Below, piece by piece: positions 8,818-28,723 of a DNA stretch of 32,000 nucleotides. The stretch covers positions 38,201-70,200 of the forward strand of contig CAYMOR010000035.1 of NCBI GenBank assembly GCA_964392045.1. Reading direction: 5' to 3'. A program made the translations under genes and the position numbers. The notes under the pieces were generated by a model. It ran no database searches and was not told the origin of the DNA. It saw only the letters and a program-made list of their open reading frames with translations. The first letter of the stretch is position 1. Each line of letters starts with the position of its first letter. The DNA comes from an uncultured Haliangium sp. Lineage in GTDB: Bacteria > Myxococcota_A > Polyangia > Haliangiales > Haliangiaceae.

Positions 8818-12846
<4,029 letters not shown>

Positions 12847-17383: not shown

Positions 17384-19411
17384 CTACGGCTCGCCGTCGT
17401 CGGCGACCAAACCGAGCACGCCGCGGATATCGCTGGCGCCGCCGCCACTGCCACCGCCGAGCGGCAACTTTTCGAGCAGGCGCCCAGCCACCTCGGCCAC
17501 GCTGTCGCCGCCCAGGATCGCTAGCGGCGAGAGGTTCTTGCTCAGCGCGGCGGCCATCTGCTGCCCGGCCAAGCTCTTGAGGGTCGCGATCAGCTCGGGC
17601 GAAAGCGCTTCCATCTGGGCCCGAAACGCGGCCGAGCGGGCCTCGAGGGATGCGCGCTCGAGCGCCGCCTCGCGCTCCTCGGCCTCGAGCCGCGCCTGGG
17701 CCAAGATACGCGCGGCCTCGGCCTCGTGGCTGGCGCGGCGCAGCTTGTCGAGCTTGTCGAGCGCGAGCACCGTGTCTGTGCGCGCCAGTTCCACCTCGCG
17801 GCGCGTGGTCTCGTGCTCGGCCGCCTTCGTGAGGGTGTCGATCTGGGCGCTGTACACGTCGCGATTGACCGACTCCTTGAGCTGCTCATCGCCGAGCCGC
17901 AACTGCTCCTGCTTGCGCGTGATGGTCGAGACGATCGCCATGCGCTGGGCGTCGCACAGCATCGCCTTGACGTCCTCGTCGAGGATCTGCACATCGAGCA
18001 CCTCGACGTCGTAGACCCACATGCCGTTTTCCTTGAACAGCCGCCCCTCGCGCTCGCCGCTGTCGCCGCGCGGGCCGAGGATGGCGCTGCGCAAGATGTC
18101 GGTGCTGGTGGCGTGAAACGAGTCGATCGAGCTGGCCCGCGCCGCCGCACGGATGATCGAGCCCAGGTGGTCGCACAGCAGGCCGACGTAGTTCTTGACG
18201 CTAAACCAGCGCTCAGAGTCACCGACGAATGAGACCCGATACGACAGCAGCACTGCCAGCTCGACGTGATCGGCGGTCTTGACCCGCACCAGATCGGAGA
18301 CCTTGTTGCCCTGCACCTGCAGAAAACAGGTCGGCAGAAGCTCATCGTCGGTCTTGGGACGACCGGTCGAGAGCGTCAGCACCTCCAGCTCCTCGTCGTA
18401 GTCCAAGATGCGGGTCTGGGGGCCGGTGAGCACCTCGCGGCGGCTTTTGGCCGAGATCATCACCGCGGTGCTGGGCGGGACATAGATCGACAGCGCGCGG
18501 CTGGGATTGTGAGCGTCGGCGTCGAGCTGATACAGAACCGCGTGGCGGGCGTCGAGCCGGCGCGAGATCAGCTCCTCGCGGGTCGGGTCCACCAGGTAGT
18601 TGATCGGCCCCTCGACCGTCGAGATCTTGCCGGAGCCCAGCTCGCGCACGTAGATCGCGGCCTTCTCTGCCAGCGGGATCGGCTCGACCACCCCGACCAC
18701 ATCGACGTTATCCGTGGGAAAGAACACCCCCTCGCGACCGCGCAAGAAGATGTCCTGACCGGCGAGATAGCTGCCCGGCGGCACCTGATCGGCCTCTTTG
18801 GCCTCAAACGGCGCGATGACCCGCACGTGCAAGCCGCGGTTCTTCTCCATGCGCCAGGCCCGGCGCACATAGCTGCCGTCGCGGTTGGGGACCACCTCGC
18901 GACCGCTCGGGGGGATATAAAAGCTGCGATCGGTGCCGCGGATGATGTGCTCGCTGCCGATGGGCTCGTCGGTGCCGAGGTCATCGTACACCCGGACCAC
19001 CAAATACTCATCCTGGCGCAGCGCGTGGCCGTCCAGCACCTTGGCCTGCTGCCCCGGCCAGAGCGGGAACTCCACCGGCCCCGGGACCACCACCTTGCGG
19101 CCAAAGCGCAGCGGGATGGCCGAGTTGGCACCTTTTACCGGCTTGTCGTCCTCATTGACCGGCGGGTTCTCGAGGATGATGTACTGCGACGACGACGCGT
19201 ACGCGAACGAATACACGCCCATCCCGGCCTCCTCGCCGCGCACTGGCACGAACCGGCCGTCGCGGAGGATGATCATGCGCTCGGTGTTCGACAAGCTGAT
19301 CTTGGTGGGGCCGACGTAGAGAACGATGTCGCCTTTGGTCAAGTCCTGCACATAGGCGTACTCATTGGGGGCGACCAGAATGTCGCGCTCACGGATATCA
19401 CGATCTGCCAT
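17384..19411 (-). CDS. Major vault protein (MVP) homologue: MVP repeats, shoulder (SPFH-like), cap-helix coiled coil and cap-ring
   Basis: 675 aa from ATG 19411. By eye it is collinear with rat/human MVP at four points:
- N-terminus: ILVAPNEYAYVQDLTKGDIVLYVGPTKISLSNTERMI vs [38 protein letters not shown].
- Shoulder: EVLTLSTGRPK...VRVKTADHVELAVLLSYRVSF vs FTVLSLSAGRPK...[22 protein letters not shown], and FSVKNYVGLLCDHLGSIIRAAARASSIDSFH vs [31 protein letters not shown].
- A ~150-aa A/E/R-rich helix.
- C-terminus: FRAQMEALSPELIATLKSLAG vs FKQMTEAIGPSTIRDLAVAG. Confidence 0.8.
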   Translation of the reverse strand: MADRDIRERDILVAPNEYAYVQDLTKGDIVLYVGPTKISLSNTERMIILRDGRFVPVRGEEAGMGVYSFAYASSSQYIILENPPVNEDDKPVKGANSAIPLRFGRKVVVPGPVEFPLWPGQQAKVLDGHALRQDEYLVVRVYDDLGTDEPIGSEHIIRGTDRSFYIPPSGREVVPNRDGSYVRRAWRMEKNRGLHVRVIAPFEAKEADQVPPGSYLAGQDIFLRGREGVFFPTDNVDVVGVVEPIPLAEKAAIYVRELGSGKISTVEGPINYLVDPTREELISRRLDARHAVLYQLDADAHNPSRALSIYVPPSTAVMISAKSRREVLTGPQTRILDYDEELEVLTLSTGRPKTDDELLPTCFLQVQGNKVSDLVRVKTADHVELAVLLSYRVSFVGDSERWFSVKNYVGLLCDHLGSIIRAAARASSIDSFHATSTDILRSAILGPRGDSGEREGRLFKENGMWVYDVEVLDVQILDEDVKAMLCDAQRMAIVSTITRKQEQLRLGDEQLKESVNRDVYSAQIDTLTKAAEHETTRREVELARTDTVLALDKLDKLRRASHEAEAARILAQARLEAEEREAALERASLEARSAAFRAQMEALSPELIATLKSLAGQQMAAALSKNLSPLAILGGDSVAEVAGRLLEKLPLGGGSGGGASDIRGVLGLVADDGEP

Positions 19412-19421
19412 GGGCCTCGGT

Positions 19422-19427
19422 CTCCTT
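19422..19427 (-). promoter_or_regulatory. Shine-Dalgarno site (AAGGAG) for the MVP homologue
   Basis: The minus strand reads taAAGGAGaccgaggcccATG, a 10-nt spacer to ATG 19411. This supports the internal Met rather than the track start at 19564. Confidence 0.55.
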
Positions 19428-19692
19428 TTACTCACGGTTGGCTGGCCTCCCACAGGCCGCTCACGGCGCAGCCTGACGGCGCCCGACGAGGTCGGGCAGA
19501 GGGTGGGTCGGTCTCGTCTCATCAGCAAAGCGCGTGCCGAGCGCGAGGCCGCGCCGATACACAACCCCCTCGCGCGCTCTCTGATCGCAAATCGTACACC
19601 TGCGCCGAAATGACGCGACCGATCCGGGCCGCGGTGAAGCAGCGACCCACATGCCCTTGCCGGTGACCGCCAGCGGTGGCATCGTCGCAGCT

Positions 19693-20886
<1,194 letters not shown>

Positions 20887-20915: not shown

Positions 20916-21893
20916 CTACGGCGACGCCACCTGCGCCGCCCGGTGGATCACCGTCGGCGGCTGCACGCCCTGCTCGCGGTACGCGCGCTTAACCCGCTCG
21001 GTCACATCGCTCTCAAACAGCTTCTCGTAGCGCACGTCGAGCACGTAGGCCTTAGCCCGCAGCCGGGTCGCCAGGTAGCTGTCCTGAATCACATCGTTGA
21101 CCAGCACCAACACCGGCTTCTCGAGATACACGAACCGGCTGGTCCGCAACGCCTCGTACACGATCCGCTTGGCCACCCGGATGTCGCTGTCGATGGCGAC
21201 ATAGAAGTCCATCACGATCTGCATATCGAGAGCGCCAGCGTTGCCGGAGACCACGACTTCAGTGAGGAAGCGGTTATTCGGGATCGTCACCAGCGAGTCG
21301 TCGAGCGTCACCAGCCGCACCGAGCGCAGCCCGATCGACGAGATCTCGCCGTACTGCCCGGCTACCGTGACCCGATCTCCAACCTGGAACGGTCGGTCGA
21401 ACAAGATCGTGATGCCGGCCAGCACCGAAGAGGCCAGATCTTTGAGCGCAAACCCCACCGTCACCGCGATCGTGCCGCTCAGGGCTAAGATGGCCTCGCG
21501 CTCGAGCTGCACAGACGAGCTGACGACGATCAGGATCGCCACCAGATAGATGGCGAAGCGCAAGATGGTGCTCACCTGCTGGACCAGCAGGCGGCGATCG
21601 GAGAAACGATCCCCGAGCCGCTCGGCCAGCCCGTTGACGAACCGCAGCGCCAACGCCGCGATCGCGATCGCCAACAGCGCCACGATGAAGCCGCTTGGGC
21701 GCAGAAAGCGCAAGATCTTGGCCGCGTCTTCGCCCTCCTGCGCATGCGCCAGCACCGGCCAGGCCAAAAGCCCGAGGACCAAGGCCAGCCCCACCGCCGA
21801 CCTCGCGGCGGGGCGCCTCCACCCTGCCGGGGATCCCCATAACGAGCACATTGTGCGGCACATTTGCAGAGATAGCTTCACGATACTGCTCAC
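20916..21893 (-). CDS. MscS-family small-conductance mechanosensitive channel
   Basis: 325 aa. LKDLASSVLAGITILFDRPFQVGDRVTVAGQYGEISSIGLRSVRLVTLDDSLVTIPNNRFLTE is the classic MscS pore-helix/beta-domain signature. The track GTG start forms a GTGA overlap with the stop of the upstream 1357-aa gene. Internal ATGs at 21863 and 21851 are alternatives. Confidence 0.85.
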   Translation of the reverse strand: MSSIVKLSLQMCRTMCSLWGSPAGWRRPAARSAVGLALVLGLLAWPVLAHAQEGEDAAKILRFLRPSGFIVALLAIAIAALALRFVNGLAERLGDRFSDRRLLVQQVSTILRFAIYLVAILIVVSSSVQLEREAILALSGTIAVTVGFALKDLASSVLAGITILFDRPFQVGDRVTVAGQYGEISSIGLRSVRLVTLDDSLVTIPNNRFLTEVVVSGNAGALDMQIVMDFYVAIDSDIRVAKRIVYEALRTSRFVYLEKPVLVLVNDVIQDSYLATRLRAKAYVLDVRYEKLFESDVTERVKRAYREQGVQPPTVIHRAAQVASP

Positions 21894-24800
21894 GAGTAGA
21901 GGAGGTGGCGACGGCGCAGGTAGCGGATGATCGACTGCTGCCAGTGAATGCTGAGCCGGACCCGCGCGGTGCTCGAGTTGAGCACCAGATAGCCGTGCTC
22001 ACAGCAATAATCGACCGCGAAACGGCAAAAGTCGGGCGAGAGATTCGACACCGCCGCGAGTTCGTCCACGTTTATGTTCTCGTGCTCGACCACGGCCGTG
22101 AGCACAAACGCCATGTCGTCCGAGAGCGCCTCTAGGGCCTGAATCCGGGGCGCGGCGAATAAGTGGACGCGCGCGGTCCGAGTCTCCTCGTCGGGCACCA
22201 GCGAGCGCAACCAAAAGTGGGTCGCGACCCGCGGGTTGCCGGCCGTGAAGTCCCACAGCAGCCGAAAATAGCCGCGCGAAGTGCGGATGATCTGGGCCCG
22301 CGTACCCACGCCTTCGATGTTTGTGACCAAAAGGTCGGTAAAGTTGCTGCGATAGCCGGCCCGCCGCATGCGGGTGAGGATCAGCCGCCGCAGCTCCTCA
22401 TCGGTCCACGGCGGCATCTTCACCACGCGCCGAAAATACGCCACGCCGCCGGCAATGTTGGCCAGGTAGTCCCAGGCCACATCGTTGAAGCCGAGCACCC
22501 AGAACACCTGCTCGCAGGTCTGATTGACGATGCGCGTGAAGGTCTCCCAGGCGCGGAAGCCATCGACCTGCCGCAGGAAGAAGTTGTGGCAGCCATCGAG
22601 CGCCATGATCCGCGGCCCCTGGTCCCGGATCGCCTGGATCAGGTCCTCCTCGCTCGAGAACACCACCGGCCCGATGGTCTCCTCACCGCCCTGCGCGGCT
22701 GGCACCGCGAGCTCGAGCAGCCCGCCAAGCGCCGCGATCAGCGCCGCCGACTGGACGTACTTGGTGGTCACCTCGACGCTCGTAATCGGCGCCTCCAGCT
22801 CACTCTCGAGCATCGAGAGCACGGTGCTCTTGCCCATGCCGCGGGCGCCGACGATGACCACCGAGCCCTGCACCCGCTGCTCCTGCCAAGCCGCAAACGC
22901 GTCGCGGATCTCGGCCAGTACCTTGGTCTTGACCGGACGATCGGACGGCGTCAGCGCGCCCGCCGGGAACGCCGCCTGCAGGTCTTTGGGCAGCTCCTCG
23001 ACCCGCTCTAGCACCCGGCCGTGCTCGGCGGCGTGCTTCTCGACCCGACGCCGAAACATAAACGCCAAAAGCCGCTTGGCGGCGTCGAGGTTGGCGACCT
23101 CATCGCGGGCCCAGATCGTCAGCCGGGTGATGATCACGCTGGTTAAGGCCACGAAGGTGAGCGCCGCACCGTAGAAGCGGTGGCCGTGGCTCGCGATCAG
23201 CTGGGTGAGCTTCGAGCCGGGCTTTAAGTAGGTGACCACCAGCTCGGCGATGGTCTTGCGGTGGATGTGGATATAGACACCGGCGAGCACGATGCCGATC
23301 CACAGCGCGATCCGCATGAACAGCGCGTAGACCAGCGCCTCGCCCATACCGACCGTGATCAGCGCTCGCACGATCAGAACGATGCCGAGATAACCGGACA
23401 GAAGCCGCCACACCCGCCGCACCAGCTTCCACGAGATCGGCGCACGCGGCAACGACGCGGCGTTCACGGCCGCCTGAGCCGGCGGATTCGCTGCGGCGCT
23501 CGCCGACCCGGACGCTCGCTGCGCCTCGTCGCCACCGCCACGCGCGCCCGTTCCCGCTCCGTCGCGCGCACCTGCGCCCGCTCCGTCGCGCGCCCCCGTG
23601 CCCGCTCCGTCGCCGCGAGTGTGCTCAAAGCCGGCCTCGTCAAACTCGGCATTCTCGCGCGCGCGCTCCTGGGTCCGCGACTCGAGTACCGCCGTGATCC
23701 GCTCGACCAGGCGCATCTGGACCCGAAACGTCGCGAACCAGAACCCAATCGGGTGCAGAATGCGCGCCTCTGGCGGCGCCTCGGCATCGCCGCCGAGCTG
23801 CCAATACACCAGCTCGATCGCCGCCAGCCACAGCAGCGCAGGGCCAAAGCTGCGGGCGAACTCGCACAGCCGCGCCAAGAACAGCGTCCACGGCCCCACC
23901 GGCAGCGCAGTGCCGATGAGTTCGACCGCGCGCAACATCCAGCCATCCCAGCGGCGCAGACAAAACCGCAGCACAAACAAGATAAAGGCGATATCGAAGA
24001 TCCACCACAGCGCGCGCCCCAAAGTGCCGTAATCACGCAAAAGCGACAGCCCGGCGCCCAGCTCCTCGACTCGACGATTGAGCCAGTACGCGGCGCCGAC
24101 AGCCGCTTGGGTGGCCTCTTGCCAGAGCTGGCCCTGGGTCCGAGCGGACAGTGGGCTGGCCAGCATCTCGCGACGGGTCTCGGGCAGTGTCTGCCACAGT
24201 GTCATGCGGGCCCGATAGAGGGCCGTGATGTGCTCGTAATACAGCCTCACGCGCTCTTGCGTCAGCTCGCGTAGATCGGCCTCGTAGGTGCGAGCGCGCT
24301 TGGACAGCGCGCTCCTAAGCTCCTCCAGCTCGGCCCGGCCGGCCTCGTATTCGTCCGGCAGCGCCCGCACCTCGACACGCAGCGAGCCCGGCCTGGGCGC
24401 GGGCGCGAGCCCGGTGAGCAAGCCGAAGATCTCGGGCAGCGCGACCAGGCGCGCGCGCGCCAGTGCCGCCCGCAGCTGGTCGTGAAGCTCGGCCCGGGTG
24501 CGCTCGCGGGCGCGCGCCAGGGCGCGCTCGTCATCGTCTTCATCGGCGGCCACAGCGGCCTCGACGCGCTTGAGAAAATCGTCGCGCTCGGCCCCGAGCT
24601 GGTCGCGCTCGTCCACCACGGTCTGGCGATAGGCCAAGACTACCTCTTGCTCAAACCGGCCCTGCTCCTGCTGGACGTGATACAGGCGGGCTCGCTCGGC
24701 GCTCAGTGTGGCCTCGGCCCGCGACGCCGCCCGCGCTTGCTCAGAGCGCGCCGCCTGCTCGGCGTCGGCCGCGGCCTGGACGTCGCGCGCGGCCCGCTCG

Positions 24801-25963
24801 GCGGCCGCGGCAATCGCCCGCGCGCTCTCACCAACGAGTTCCTGCGCGGCTCGCCGGGCCGGCTGACTGCGGCCGAGATACGACCAGCTGGCCTCGACCA
24901 GCGCCAGCTCGCGCAGCGCCAACTGACCCCGCAGCTGCACCTGCTCCAAGCGCGCCGCCCGCACCGCCGCGAGCGCGTCGGCGGCGGCCTCCGCTGCGGG
25001 CTGACGCGGATCGCGCGCGCGCCTGCGGCCAGCGGCCGGCGCCGCCGCAGCGTCCGACTGCCAGCTCTTCGTCAGGGTGTCCTCAATCGCCGCCCAGTCG
25101 CTGGCCTCGGCGTGCAGCGCGACCCGCCGTCTGGTCAGCGCGTCCCGGAACGCCGCCACCGCGTCGGCGTCGGTGAGATCGACGTCGCTGGCCGGCCACA
25201 GCGCAACCGTCGGTTGGGCGTGGCCCGCCCGCGCGCCACCGTCTCCATCAGGGCCATCAGAGCCGTCAAGACCATCAGAGCCGTCAGGACCATCAGGACC
25301 GGCGCCACCGCGACCGCCGACCACGCCGCCGTCTGCGCCCCCTGGCCCGGCCAAGTTCGGCTCGCTGTCCTCAAACCCGTCCGCGCCAGCCGCGACCCCC
25401 GCATCCGCCATCGTACCGACGCCCGCGTCAGCCGCGGGCGCAAGCGCGGTGAGCCACGACGACAGCACCGACTCGGGCGCCACCGGCGGCGCCACCTCCG
25501 CCAGCCCCGCCGCCAAAAGGCCCGGCGGGGGCTCGACGACCTCGGCCGCCAGCCCCGTCACCGCCTCGATGCGGGCCTCGAGCGCCGCGCGCTCCCGGGT
25601 CAAGGCGTCGAGCTGCCGACTCCGCCAACGCGCCAGCTCGGCCTCGTCTACCGCCAGCCCGGCATCGGTCCACATCGCGCCGCCGACCACGCCCCACAGC
25701 GCCGTCGCCGCCGCCTCCCAGGTGCTGTGGAGCGTGTCGCGATCTGGTACCACGCCGCCCAGCGCCGCGCCGTCACCCGCGCCCGGCGGTGACCCGGGCC
25801 CAGCATCGGGCGGCGCAGCCGCAGCGGGCGCGGCTGCCGCCAACATCAGCACGAGCATAGATAGCGCACGCACGGCGACACCATACCGCGCGGGCGACCG
25901 CGTCCGCCACTTACCGGCGCCGCGCGGCTGAGCGGCGGCGCACGCTCCAGCGCCGCTGCTCAA
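21890..25963 (-). CDS. Giant envelope-spanning protein: signal peptide, ~600-aa periplasmic coiled-coil/low-complexity region, ~7-8 TM helices, cytoplasmic P-loop (AAA+/STAND-like) ATPase and a winged-helix-like tail
   Basis: 1357 aa.
- Signal-like N-terminus: [21 protein letters not shown].
- Long Ala/Arg/Glu heptad-like stretches.
- TM clusters: [22 protein letters not shown]..., [87 protein letters not shown].
- Walker [14 protein letters not shown] at nt ~22823-22849.
- Walker B-like [12 protein letters not shown].
- [16 protein letters not shown] and [11 protein letters not shown] resemble the lid/sensor-2 region of ORC/Cdc6-, ExeA- or Arch_ATPase-type NTPases.
The exact start is uncertain: TTG 25963, GTG ~25873 or ATG 25858. 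Confidence 0.75.
23544..23615 (-). repeat. In-frame 24-bp tandem repeat x3 encoding DGAG(T/A)GAR in a loop of the giant protein
   Basis: The plus strand reads ...cccgctccgtcgcgcgcacctgcg / cccgctccgtcgcgcgcccccgtg / cccgctccgtcgcc. The protein reads [28 protein letters not shown]. Coordinates are approximate. Confidence 0.7.
25245..25300 (-). repeat. In-frame 9/18-bp tandem repeat encoding (DGxDGS)-type sequence in the periplasmic part of the giant protein
   Basis: The plus strand reads ccatcagggccatcagagccgtcaagaccatcagagccgtcaggaccatcaggacc. The protein reads [22 protein letters not shown]. Coordinates are approximate. Confidence 0.65.
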
Positions 25964-26265
25964 TCAGGGATCGCGCCGGGCGAGCCCTGATCTGATACCC
26001 CGGCGTCAGCGACATCGCCCTCAGCACCCTCAGTGCCCGGCTGCGCTGCTGGCGGCGAGCTGGGCGGCGGCGGTGGCGGCGCAGGGACACGCGCCCCGGC
26101 GTCGCCAAAGAACCCCTCGGTCGAGACGTCGTGATGCGGCTTGGGATCGGGCCAGAACAGAAACCCCAAGGTGGTGGTGATGATGCCCAGGATGATCATC
26201 CCGCCGAGCGGCAGGATCAGCGCGTATTTGTGATCGCCGGGATTAAACGGATGCGAAGAACTCAT
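25960..26265 (-). CDS. Small single-pass membrane protein with a Pro-rich acidic tail
   Basis: 101 aa from internal ATG 26265 ([38 protein letters not shown]...[10 protein letters not shown]...). That ATG forms an ATGA overlap with the stop of the upstream pseudouridine synthase gene. Its own TGA overlaps the TTG at 25963 of the giant ORF. Confidence 0.55.
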
Positions 26266-27563
26266 CGCTGTCCTGGCTTTAGCACACCCGGCCCGGAAGA
26301 TCTCGCGGGCGCCGCCAGCGCCGGGGTGACGACATCGCGGCGATCGAGAAACTCGCGCAAATCGGCCGGCAGCGGGCACTCGATCCGCACCGGCTGACCA
26401 GACACTGGGTGCGGCACGGTCACCGCCGCGGCGTGCAGCGCCTGCCGCGGCAGCACCAACAGCGCCCGCAGCGCGTCGCTCATGCCGTGGTCGCAGTAGT
26501 CGGCGAACACATCATCGCCGTGGGCGTAGAGCTTATCGCCGACGATCGGATAACCACACGCCGCCAGGTGAGCGCGGATCTGGTGCTGGCGACCAGTCAC
26601 CGGGGTACACCGCACCAACGCCGCGTGCGGCCGCCGCAAAAGCACCCGCACCCGCGTGAGCGAGGGCAGCCCATCGCCCCGCACCACCATGCGGATGCCG
26701 ATCCGGGCCGCGCTGTCGTTCACCAGGCCCAGCGGCAGGTCGATGTCGTAGTCGTCAACGTCGCTGTCGCCCGCGTCGCCCGCGTCACCCTCATTGGGCC
26801 ACGGTGGATCGCCCCACACCACCGCCAGATACACCTTCTGCACCCGCTTATCGGCGAACGCGCCTTTGAGCCGCGCCGCCATCTCACGGCCGCGGGCGAG
26901 CACCAGCGCCCCCGAGGTCTCGCGGTCGAGGCGGTGGCAGATCTGCAGCGCTTGCCCCGGCAGGTGCTCCGCGAGCACCCGCGTGAGGGTGTTGAAATAA
27001 AACCGTGCGGACGCGTGTACGGGTAACCCCGCCGGCTTGTCGATGACCATCATCGCGCCGTCGTCGTGCAAAATCTCAAACCAGCGCGGACACGGCGGCT
27101 CGGGCCGCGCCGGGCGGCGAATCACGATCTCGTCGCCGACCTTGACGCGGGCGCTCGGGGCCAGCGCGAGGCCCCGCACCGGCAAAAGCTGGGTGCGAAT
27201 GATGCGCTGAATCTTGGTCCGCGACAGCCGCGGGATGTGACGCTTCAAGTAGTGGTCGAGGCGAAACCCGGCGTCGTGCTCCTCCACCCGGAAGCGCCGC
27301 TCGACGATCCGCGGCTGGCCGCGCTCGTCGAGGTGGACATCGACCCCCATATCGAACTCGACGCCCACCGATCGGCGCTCGGCGGCTACCTCGGCCGCCG
27401 CACTGGCCGTCACCCCAGCAGCAATCCCAGCCGCAATAGTCGCGTCCCGGCTCGACCGATCGGGCGATAACCCGTCATCCCCAGCGCCGCCAGCGCGGAC
27501 GTCGGCGTCGCCCCGATCTCGACCCAGCGCGCCGCGCTCAGCGCTATCATCGTTCTCGGACAC
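26262..27563 (-). CDS. RluA/RluD-family pseudouridine synthase with an S4 domain and a ~90-aa low-complexity N-terminal extension
   Basis: 433 aa. The S4-like segment is [24 protein letters not shown]. The catalytic motif is [22 protein letters not shown] and HQIRAHLA blocks are also present. The start codon is GTG. Confidence 0.9.
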
Positions 27564-27590: not shown

Positions 27591-28667
27591 TCAGTCGACC
27601 ACCAGCGCGCCGCTCTCGACATCGTCGAGCGCTTCCATGCGCCGGCTGGTCTCATTGAACTCATCGAGCCGGCGCGCGCCTTCCATCAGAAGCTGGGTGA
27701 TCGACGCCGCGACCCGGTCTTCCATCTGCACATCGCCGGGCTTGAACTCAAACCGACCCTCCGTCCACTTGAGGAGATAGTAGACGCACTCGGCGTCTTC
27801 CATCCCCCACGACAACTCGCCGAACTCCTCTTCCTCCGCGTCGTCGTCGTCGCCGCCCTCGCCGCCGGGTATGTAATCGAGGGTCGCGTGAATCACCCGT
27901 CCCGCCTTGAGATAAATCTCAGCCACGCCCTCTTGCTCGTGATGCAGTATCAAGATGCCGCTCTTCTGCTCCATCTCGAGCATCGTGAGCAACATCGGCA
28001 GCCCGATCTCGCTCAGGTTGCCGGCGAGCGCAGTCTCGAGGTGGACCTGCTCGCCGTCAGCGCCGCCCTCGCCGTTGCTATCGCCCGGGCGGGCCGCCGG
28101 CTCCACACCGCTGATCGGTCGCCGCCGGTGTCCGTCCCCATCGGCGGCGGTACTGGCGCGCAGCTCGGCGTTTGAGCCTACCGCCAGCGTTGGCTCAGCT
28201 TGGCTGGTGGCGCGCTGCGCGCTCAGCTGAGCCGCAGCCGAGGTCTCCGGGGCGCTGGCCGGCCGGGCCGCGCCATCATCGCTGTCGGCGGCGGGCTGGG
28301 TGCGCCGCAGGGTGCGCGCGACGCGCAGGTCGAGTTCTTCAAACCGAAATGGTTTCGGCAGGTAGTCGTCGGCGCCGAGCCGAAACCCGTGAATCCGGTC
28401 GTCGTCCGAGCTAAGCGCAGTCAAGAAGATCACCGGGATATGCCGCAGCGCGGGGTGTTCGCGCATGCGCCGCACCAGCGCCCAACCGTCCACATTGGGC
28501 ATCATTACGTCGGTGATGAGCAGGTCGGGCGGGTTGCTCAGCGCGCGCTCATAGGCCTGCTCGCCATCTGGCGCCGTATCGACGTCATAGCCGCGCTTCT
28601 TGAGCACAGTGGTGACCATGCGCAGAATCCACGCATCGTCATCGGCGACTAGAATTCGCGGAGCCAT
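27591..28667 (-). CDS. Response regulator: receiver domain plus C-terminal DUF4388 domain
   Basis: The receiver reads [18 protein letters not shown]...[17 protein letters not shown]...PVIFLTAL...DDYLPKPF. An Ala/Ser-rich linker follows. The C-terminal part, [48 protein letters not shown], fits the DUF4388 pattern. The start is taken at M9 (28667), while the track start is 28691. Confidence 0.85.
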
Positions 28668-28723
28668 GACCTCTGTTAACGTAGCCACCACCGGCAGCGG
28701 CTGTCAAAACATGAAATGACCAT

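Follow-up and report, generated by a model that had tools for sequence, protein, structure and literature searches.

An AAA+ membrane protein family encoded next to MscS-type channel genes: a candidate nucleotide-dependent partner of a mechanosensitive channel

Introduction

MscS channels are the textbook example of direct gating by membrane tension, which requires neither energy nor partner proteins. Control of an MscS pore by a ligand-binding module is known from the bCNG channels (cyclic-nucleotide-binding) and the EF-hand channels Msy1/2, where the sensor, which binds a cyclic nucleotide monophosphate or Ca2+, is part of the channel polypeptide itself, at its C- or N-terminal end. MscK/MscM-type channels associate an MscS-type pore with a signal peptide, a large helical periplasmic domain and extra membrane helices. 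Here we analyse a 32,000-nucleotide (nt) stretch of DNA from an uncultured Haliangium sp. (contig CAYMOR010000035.1, positions 38,201 to 70,200; hereafter the window, within which all positions are counted from the first letter), whose minus strand carries a gene for a very large protein with periplasmic, membrane-embedded and AAA+ ATPase parts (hereafter the giant), followed directly by a gene for an MscS-family channel. The layout recalls MscK/MscM, but here extension and pore are separate polypeptides, and the AAA+/winged-helix module is absent from MscK; likewise, in contrast to bCNG and Msy1/2, the candidate regulator is a separate membrane protein of ~1300 amino acids (aa) with an ATP site. 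The searchable literature gave no account of MscS channels with an AAA+ partner. The novelty lies in the partner family and in its obligate pairing with the channel, which is itself of an ordinary kind. We tentatively propose, giving it a little less than an even chance, that the two proteins are synthesised jointly and form a single functional complex in the membrane, with the AAA+ protein as an accessory or regulatory subunit that depends on nucleotide.

Two groups of ATPases are also relevant for comparison. AAA+ proteins of the ORC/Cdc6, DnaC and TnsC group act as ATP-dependent switches of assembly, and the last ~350 residues of the giant resemble Cdc6/Orc1, RuvB and the archaeal ATPases 2qen/2fna in fold (Foldseek 2.8e-9 to 1e-6) and in the Walker A motif. 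Those proteins are soluble and DNA-binding, whereas here the module ends a polytopic membrane protein; additionally, relative to Cdc6/Orc1 and RuvB, the winged helix of the giant is acidic, the Walker B Glu is mostly absent across its family and the identity to the structural matches is 8-16%. The second group is represented by ExeA/GspA (AAA_22, TniB-like), ExeA being an inner-membrane ATPase with a periplasmic domain. The likeness lies in AAA_22, the only Pfam family to score over its threshold; the score is marginal in the window protein (27.8 vs 27 bits), and 39 of 41 family members match (best 3.8e-14). However, ExeA has the opposite order, with an N-terminal cytoplasmic ATPase, a single transmembrane (TM) helix and a C-terminal periplasmic peptidoglycan-binding domain, and its partners are ExeB and a secretin, not a channel. 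The giant departs from this architecture in its reversed order, its 5-6 hydrophobic helices and its lack of a peptidoglycan-binding domain, and no ExeA-specific NCBIfam model matches it.

Conserved linkage of the giant and MscS genes

An earlier note on this DNA had described three minus-strand open reading frames (ORFs), coding for a small membrane protein, the giant and the channel, as a translationally coupled module chained by 4-nt start/stop overlaps, and had called for a survey of whether ATPase-containing homologues always sit beside an MscS gene. The three ORFs lie where the note had placed them, and the survey bears out the pairing of the last two: in all of the assessable loci, 35 of 35, the giant gene is directly followed by an MscS-family ORF in the same orientation. 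These include the window, L001-L028 and L030-L032 (among them 29 of the 30 loci that were scanned; L029 was left out of the count, as it stops 80 nt past the giant gene), as well as the loci of the distant members P0071, P0100 and P0107, which were inspected singly and keep the same arrangement, and the locus of P0132, where the two genes are fused (see below). The linked loci span Myxococcota, Acidobacteriota and Thermodesulfobacteriota. In the scanned loci, candidate MscS starts lie between -4 and +29 nt from the giant stop; elsewhere the distance reaches +60 nt. In line with this, pairwise divergence of the C-terminal half of the giant correlates with that of the MscS protein (r=0.90, a value reached in 0 of 2000 permutations), and the pair has thus been passed on as a unit.

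No third gene accompanies the pair: all-against-all clustering of the ORFs of 33 loci (window included) gave only the giant, MscS and shadow ORFs. As for the 101-aa protein encoded upstream of the giant, it has no family match in the Pfam scan and a homologue in L002 only, out of the 33 loci; among the other loci, L002 is also the only one with an RluA gene near the pair. By this comparison the 101-aa protein is a lineage-specific neighbour outside the conserved module, and the conserved unit is two genes, the giant and MscS, not three. The proposed three-gene coupled module is accordingly given up, the more so as the start on which its second overlap depended is almost certainly not real (see below). 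Its first overlap, ATGA at 26262-26265, is present, but the start/stop overlap that it forms joins the ATG of the 101-aa ORF to the TGA stop of an upstream RluA-family gene. Four-nt overlaps are common in operons, and the signal that exceeds chance is the conserved pairing with MscS.

The same data bear on the simplest alternative, that co-transcription of the two genes serves their shared regulation, as in a response to osmotic or envelope stress, and that their products are coupled neither physically nor mechanistically. Operons do also group loosely related genes. Nevertheless, adjacency in all 35 loci across phylum-level divergence, with constant order and strand and a spacing of -4 to +60 nt, the co-divergence of the two proteins and the lack of any other conserved neighbour make this explanation quite improbable.

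One in-frame fusion of the two genes was found. P0132 (1183 aa; L034 4001-7552, also in L035 and L036) consists of a giant-family part cut inside the winged helix and joined to the TM3, beta and C-terminal domains of MscS, without TM1-2. The fusion occurs on seven contigs; the three places named come from three Joint Genome Institute (JGI) samples with consecutive accession numbers. The junction lies at a short similar sequence (LRE|R) and looks like the product of a microhomology-mediated deletion. P0132 was considered as Rosetta-stone evidence for a functional link and was down-weighted, given the missing MscS TM1-2 and the deletion-like junction. Just upstream of the fusion lies a 276-aa gene with MS_channel_1st_1 helices.

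In the locus of the distant member P0119 (L038 105-2848), the giant gene is directly preceded by a DUF432 gene and two extra MscS genes, and the second of these MscS genes overlaps the start of the giant gene by 17 nt. Downstream, the contig stops 170 nt past the giant gene, and a new ORF with a signal peptide begins 3 nt after the stop.

Size and distribution of the giant family

The family was exposed by an exhaustive HMMER scan of cluster representatives (50% identity) with residues 640-1357 of the giant as query, which gave 2467 representatives with E<=1e-3, 606 of them with E<=1e-30. Word-indexed homologue searches had found 3, 5 and 12 proteins, low-complexity words probably swamping the candidates. 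The members for which a source label is given all come from metagenome-assembled genomes (MAGs) or metagenomes, and the labels read 'AAA family ATPase' or 'hypothetical protein'. Apart from the domain matches to AAA_22 and AAA_16, there is no curated family model for the giant in Pfam, NCBIfam or the PADLOC models. The 30 scanned loci were fetched via a single conserved peptide pattern, derived from an 8-sequence alignment, and are thus a narrow sample made up of MAGs throughout; they belong mostly to Myxococcota (Haliangium, Kofleriaceae, Polyangiaceae, Sandaracinaceae), with some Thermodesulfobacteriota and Acidobacteriota/Thermoanaerobaculia. The closest relatives of the window are Haliangiales/Haliangium MAGs (P0002, 89% identical; L003, 64% identical).

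Family members are typically 800-1200 aa long and have a signal-peptide-like N-terminus and 4-6 detected hydrophobic helices, with Walker A ~100 residues past the last of these. The conserved core extends from about residue 845 up to the C-terminal end; outside the ATPase, conservation is highest in the second membrane cluster, in the basic juxtamembrane helix and in the C-terminal tail.

The MscS partner channel

The 325-aa protein encoded downstream of the giant had been called a canonical MscS, and the profile searches agree. It matches MS_channel_2nd at 67.4 bits (cut-off 20.2; E=1.2e-18) and MS_channel_3rd at 22.3 bits (cut-off 21), as well as the NCBIfam MscS and MscK models. The alignment with solved MscS structures extends from TM1 through to the C-terminus. 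Residues 59-303 align with residues 30-269 of E. coli MscS (2oau, 6rld) at ~1e-14; the closest solved structure, by a small margin, is the MscK core (7uw5, 5.1e-18), and 3udc is also matched. With a signal-peptide-like segment, three TM helices, a beta domain and a C-terminal domain, the predicted product is a canonical small MscS.

The overlap proposed between the two genes is present: in the GTGA at 21890-21893, the TGA of the giant overlaps a GTG in the MscS frame. Two alternative starts, ATG 21863 (315 aa, +26) and ATG 21851 (311 aa, +38), both keep the signal peptide. A start at the overlapping GTG is plausible because in L004 and L028 the only start that keeps the signal peptide is a -4 overlap. 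The N-termini of the partner MscS proteins of L001-L032 and the window (21700-21893) are of two types, with or without a signal-peptide-like leader, the type with the leader being that of Polyangia/Haliangiales; both share a motif of approximately (I/L)(L/I)xF(L/V)RxxG directly before TM1.

Start and integrity of the giant gene

Residue numbers of the giant are counted throughout from TTG 25963, the start adopted by the earlier note, which had it overlap the stop of the 101-aa ORF. The TTGA tetranucleotide is present at 25960-25963, but a start there is unlikely. In the orthologous locus L002, 89% identical, the equivalent TTG is out of frame and meets a TAA; the giant ORF there shares its frame with the small gene, and its first in-frame start is a GTG equivalent to window position 25873. 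Additionally, against this orthologue, codons 1-30 of the long ORF show a ratio of nonsynonymous to synonymous substitution rates (dN/dS) of ~1.25, with indels, and from codon 61 onward dN/dS is 0.05-0.35 in each segment. Because of this frame difference and the relaxed pattern over codons 1-30, the true start is almost certainly GTG 25873 (V31), which would give a protein of 1327 aa. This start lies 86 nt past the small gene, and therefore overlap-based translational coupling at that junction is not expected. In the same comparison, the differences in the first 115 nt of the 101-aa ORF are mostly synonymous.

The possibility that several genes had been fused by accepting one long frame was considered and ruled out. 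The in-frame GC content at third codon positions (GC3) is 0.76-0.94 along the ORF, a single 50-codon block at the Asp-Gly repeat excepted; dN/dS is low, and ~120 homologues show the identical N-to-C layout. Judged by these patterns, the giant ORF is a single gene under purifying selection, its low-complexity parts included, as the earlier note had assumed.

Architecture of the giant protein

Models from AlphaFold2 (AF2; mean predicted local distance difference test, pLDDT, 83.5 and 87.3, and ~90 over the C-terminal 350 aa) and Foldseek searches support the architecture that had been read from the sequence: a signal peptide, a helical periplasmic region, two groups of membrane helices, a cytoplasmic P-loop domain with an ORC/Arch_ATPase-like lid, and a winged helix (Table 1). 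The predicted periplasmic domain consists of helices of 91, 61, 38 and 56 residues, modelled with pLDDT mostly >90. It shows weak similarity to the equivalent region of P0003 and has no Pfam match, either in the window protein or in 41 family members. Across the family the extracytoplasmic part varies in length from ~70 to ~650 aa, and it is nearly absent in P0006.

In the first membrane cluster, the segments at 650-669 and 705-721 are clear TM helices, and the helix at 735-755 is only moderately hydrophobic. The second has three conserved hydrophobic helices (residues 845-958), followed by the basic juxtamembrane helix (residues 960-981; family consensus LAFLFRRRxEK). Hydropathy and AF2 thus count 5-6 hydrophobic segments in the giant, and a family-wide positive-inside charge analysis led to two imperfect 5-span models. 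At the far end, the basic C-terminal tail (...RYLRRKHLLYS) is a motif kept across the family. For contact with a membrane partner, the second membrane cluster, the juxtamembrane helix and the tail are the best-placed regions.

The loop between the two clusters had been noted for its repeats. Both tandem repeats of the protein are indeed present, one in the acidic region and one in this loop; the loop itself, however, has an alignment-column occupancy of only 0.04-0.32 in the family and is, by this measure, a lineage-specific insertion. Both repeats also differ in length between the window and L002, and indels cluster in those segments.

A further suggestion was that the N-terminal half has the layout of the periplasmic and TM extension of MscK/MscM-type channels. 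The layout is indeed alike, but homology was rejected by four kinds of comparison. MscS_porin and MscS_TM match neither the window protein (E<=1) nor 41 family members (E<=0.01); hhalign of the family against E. coli MscK gave a probability of 1.8%, in a comparison of limited sensitivity with a single MscK sequence; and MscK/MscM are absent among the 60 best PDB-profile matches and among the 50 best Foldseek matches of a 1057-residue model. The PDB-profile and Foldseek matches listed are P-loop/AAA+ proteins only, plus one coiled-coil and one MarR-like protein. Nor is the extension fused to an MscS core as in MscK: the channel is a separate gene in 34 loci, and the sole fusion, P0132, joins it behind the ATPase, not behind the TM extension.

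The long periplasmic helices raise the alternative that the giant spans the envelope as an ATP-dependent sensor or tether and has its main task outside channel control, for example in the surveillance or upkeep of envelope or periplasm architecture. MscS would then be a mere output or safety valve, linked to the giant in function but not gated directly by the ATPase. Periplasmic helices of 91 and 61 residues, a switch-like AAA+ domain and the strict linkage to MscS would all suit such a device. However, the periplasmic domain is the least conserved part of the family, being nearly absent in some members such as P0006, and the core consists of membrane and ATPase parts; additionally, no further conserved partner gene points to a bigger machine. 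We regard this alternative as rather unlikely.

ATPase fold and nucleotide site

The motifs GARGMGKS, IMALD and GNPR, on which the call of a nucleotide-binding domain had been based, translate as reported. Only AAA_22 and AAA_16 recognise the giant in Pfam. The top Foldseek neighbours in the PDB are Cdc6/Orc1 (7jgr_G, 2.8e-9; 2qby_A; 1fnn_A), RuvB and the archaeal ATPases 2qen/2fna, at probability 1.00, with Apaf-1/CED-4 and heptameric TnsC as further neighbours. The alignments run along the full length of the Cdc6/Orc1 and RuvB chains, and the aligned stretch probably includes their winged-helix domain. According to the models, the last ~350 residues form a three-domain AAA+ fold made up of an alpha/beta base, a helical lid and a winged helix. 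Sensor-2 counterparts of GNPRxA are GDAR in Cdc6 and GTPR in RuvB, and a motif after strand 5 of the giant, PWxExEIxxLIxxR, resembles its counterpart in Cdc6.

Conservation of the motifs was counted over 111 family members. In Walker A (GARGMGKS in the window) the Gly positions are invariant and the Lys is kept in 101; the Walker B Asp (IMALD in the window) is kept in 108; sensor 1 is Asn in 48 and Ser in 34 (82 of 111 together; Asn1160 in the window); and the sensor-2 Arg (GNPRxA in the family, GNPR in the window) is kept in 92, its Gly and Pro being near-invariant. In contrast, the residue after the Walker B Asp is Asp in 35, Asn in 13, Glu in 13, Leu in 11, Gly in 10 and Arg in 9 members, and Gly in the window, so that a canonical hhhhDE motif with the catalytic Glu is found neither in the window protein nor in most members. 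The earlier note had named a degenerate, non-catalytic P-loop as an outcome that would count against its proposal. The site is not degenerate, since Walker A and the sensors are kept, but neither is it that of a canonical hydrolase. It looks functional for nucleotide binding and sensing, with the canonical catalytic Glu missing in most members. Because Walker A, sensor 1 and the sensor-2 Arg are kept but the Walker B Glu is not, the motif pattern suggests a switch with slow or conditional hydrolysis and not a processive motor.

This pattern bears on the alternative that the giant is an AAA+ chaperone dedicated to the assembly, insertion or quality control of the co-encoded MscS heptamer. AAA+ proteins often serve in such roles, and a one-to-one pairing with near-zero intergenic distances would be expected of a dedicated factor. 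Nonetheless, the domain is of the ORC/Cdc6/RuvB switch type and not of the Clp/FtsH unfoldase type, its catalytic Glu is not conserved, and canonical MscS assembles without helpers in other bacteria; an assembly factor is thus distinctly improbable.

The winged helix suggests yet another alternative, namely that the giant is a membrane-tethered, ATP-dependent DNA-binding protein that controls transcription of the operon or anchors the chromosome to the membrane, its winged helix being used as in Cdc6/Orc1 or MarR proteins. Its structural neighbours Cdc6/Orc1, RuvB and TnsC are all DNA-binding AAA+ proteins; the winged helix is matched by MarR_2 in 5 of 41 members and by the MarR-like YusO (1.7e-4, PDB profile search); and the conserved C-terminal tail is basic (family median +4). 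The winged helix itself, however, is acidic (median net charge -4 in the family) and its putative recognition helix carries no conserved basic residues, and DNA binding would leave both the universal pairing with MscS and the conserved multi-helix membrane domain unexplained. The charge of the winged helix likewise weakens the earlier note's alternative that this end of the protein couples envelope signals to DNA. We hold this role to be decidedly unlikely.

Assignment to the STAND NTPases (NACHT/NB-ARC) was also considered, on the basis of weak matches in 2-7 of 41 members (best E 1.6e-4 to 1.3e-3), and was rejected because the sensor-2 Arg is conserved and the protein ends right after the winged helix. 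These matches connect to the idea of a role in anti-phage defence or abortive infection, with the NTPase as sensor and the channel as the effector that it opens to collapse the membrane potential. An NTPase combined with a membrane effector is a common logic of defence systems, and the weak Pfam NACHT/nSTAND matches of a few members would agree with it. However, PADLOC gave one spurious match only (Cas2, E=0.038, no stretch passing alone) among the three proteins, the sensor-like domain is periplasmic instead of cytoplasmic, and a sensor-2 Arg is a typical mark of classical AAA+ proteins, as opposed to STAND proteins. The flanking genes, moreover, are housekeeping genes that differ between loci, and the GC content equals that of the surroundings (~67% throughout the window). 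A defence role is accordingly extremely unlikely.

Proposed function of the pair

In the proposed complex of the AAA+ protein with MscS, the first gene would provide the envelope-embedded AAA+ protein and the second, starting within a few nt of the first gene's stop, a small MscS. The predicted periplasmic helical domain of the window protein would be long enough to cross much of the periplasm. The membrane helices of the AAA+ protein would pack against the channel, with the second membrane cluster, the juxtamembrane helix and the basic tail as likely contact elements, and the protein would assist or regulate the MscS heptamer as a nucleotide-dependent subunit. The variable periplasmic helices would be the envelope-facing input, reporting the state of the envelope, and ATP binding or slow hydrolysis would switch the assembly between states and thereby set or reset the readiness of the channel to open. 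The NTP-gated or NTP-reset device suggested in the earlier note would be a reasonable hypothesis. Co-transcription, physical contact, an effect of nucleotide on gating and the direction of signalling are each steps that we infer.

Several points weigh against this proposal. The interaction, co-transcription and ATPase activity are all proposed from sequence and models, and in the absence of the Walker B Glu, hydrolysis could be slight or nil. The distance correlation could largely reflect shared species phylogeny. Regarding the input, the periplasmic domain ranges from ~70 to >600 aa, so that what is sensed is not bound to one conserved fold. As to topology, many members have six hydrophobic segments, yet with a periplasmic N-terminal domain and a cytoplasmic ATPase the number of spans has to be odd. 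A closed AAA+ ring would probably clash with the cytoplasmic vestibule of MscS, and the complex would have to be arranged otherwise. Lastly, the sole natural fusion, P0132, lacks not only MscS TM1-2 but also the tail of the giant, and with its doubtful topology it lends the proposal little support.

A bolder form of the proposal is that the pair is the first ATP-controlled bacterial mechanosensitive channel, in which the AAA+ switch docks on or surrounds the MscS heptamer and its nucleotide state, perhaps with input from a helical probe across the periplasm, sets the threshold of opening or resets inactivation; we consider this form possible but on the doubtful side. If it were true, ATP-controlled gating would be a categorically new mechanism, and a class of channels regarded as purely tension-gated would include a valve that depends on energy and on the state of the envelope. 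More generally, the linkage suggests that at least one branch of MscS is under nucleotide-dependent control or reports to an ATP-binding switch. It also offers a first functional handle on a large unannotated family of membrane proteins (at least 606 clusters in several Gram-negative phyla), in which an AAA+/winged-helix module of the ORC/Cdc6 type, otherwise known from DNA transactions, caps a polytopic membrane protein.

Other features of the region

Four co-oriented minus-strand ORFs span 20916-27563, namely those of the RluA-family protein, the 101-aa protein, the 4-kb giant and the 325-aa channel; their coordinates and those of the parts of the giant are collected in Table 1. A promoter scan gave 0 promoter-like sites and 2 terminator-like sites, both inside coding sequence and fewer than the chance expectation, and Rfam and tRNA scans gave no matches.

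Table 1. Positions of the genes and of the predicted parts of the giant protein within the window (residue numbers as defined in the text).
Feature	Position	Strand	Basis
RluA-family pseudouridine synthase gene	26262-27563	minus	TIGR00005 204.7 bits; Pfam and NCBIfam
101-aa ORF, one TM helix and Pro-rich region	25960-26265	minus	Sequence, hydropathy
Giant gene, ~1327 aa, start GTG 25873, stop TGA 21890-21892	21890-25873	minus	
Predicted Sec-type signal peptide, 20 aa, residues 31-50	25814-25873	minus	Sequence inspection; similar N-termini in most family members
Acidic Ala/Gly/Asp/Pro-rich low-complexity region, residues 51-300	25064-25813	minus	Net charge -25; dN/dS 0.35
Asp-Gly tandem repeat, DG(P/S/L)DG	25245-25300	minus	Tandem Repeats Finder; inside acidic region
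Predicted periplasmic all-helical domain, residues 320-640	24044-25006	minus	AF2 model m48614c13fdcb
First membrane cluster, residues 645-755	23699-24031	minus	Hydropathy, family charge profile, AF2 helices
Disordered Gly/Ala/Asp/Arg-rich loop, residues 770-842	23438-23656	minus	pLDDT <50
24-nt repeat, three copies, encoding 8 aa (GAGxGARD)x3	23541-23613	minus	Tandem Repeats Finder; inside disordered loop
Second membrane cluster and juxtamembrane helix	23021-23431	minus	Hydropathy, charge profile, AF2; conserved core starts here
AAA+ alpha/beta domain, residues 1010-1180	22424-22936	minus	Pfam AAA_22, AAA_16; Foldseek
Walker A, GARGMGKS	22826-22849	minus	Translation
Walker B, IMALD, then Gly	22595-22609	minus	Translation
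AAA+ lid domain, residues 1181-1270	22154-22423	minus	AF2, Foldseek
Sensor-2 motif, GNPR	22229-22240	minus	Translation
Winged helix (residues 1275-1342) and basic C-terminal tail (1343-1357)	21893-22141	minus	
MscS-family channel gene, 325 aa from GTG	20916-21893	minus	Pfam, NCBIfam, structure alignment

Further genes of the window include a response regulator fused to DUF4388 (27591-28691, minus strand) and a 1342-aa hybrid histidine kinase with Reg_prop beta-propellers (8818-12846, plus strand); both are typical myxobacterial signalling genes and show no linkage to the module at other loci. An ORF at 17384-19564 (minus strand), with a likely start near 19414, codes for a ~676-aa bacterial protein homologous to the major vault protein of eukaryotes (Pfam MVP_shoulder 2.2e-29, Vault_3 1e-6). 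It adjoins a tryptophan 2,3-dioxygenase gene (19651-20886, plus strand), and the two are also found together in the 89% relative L002.

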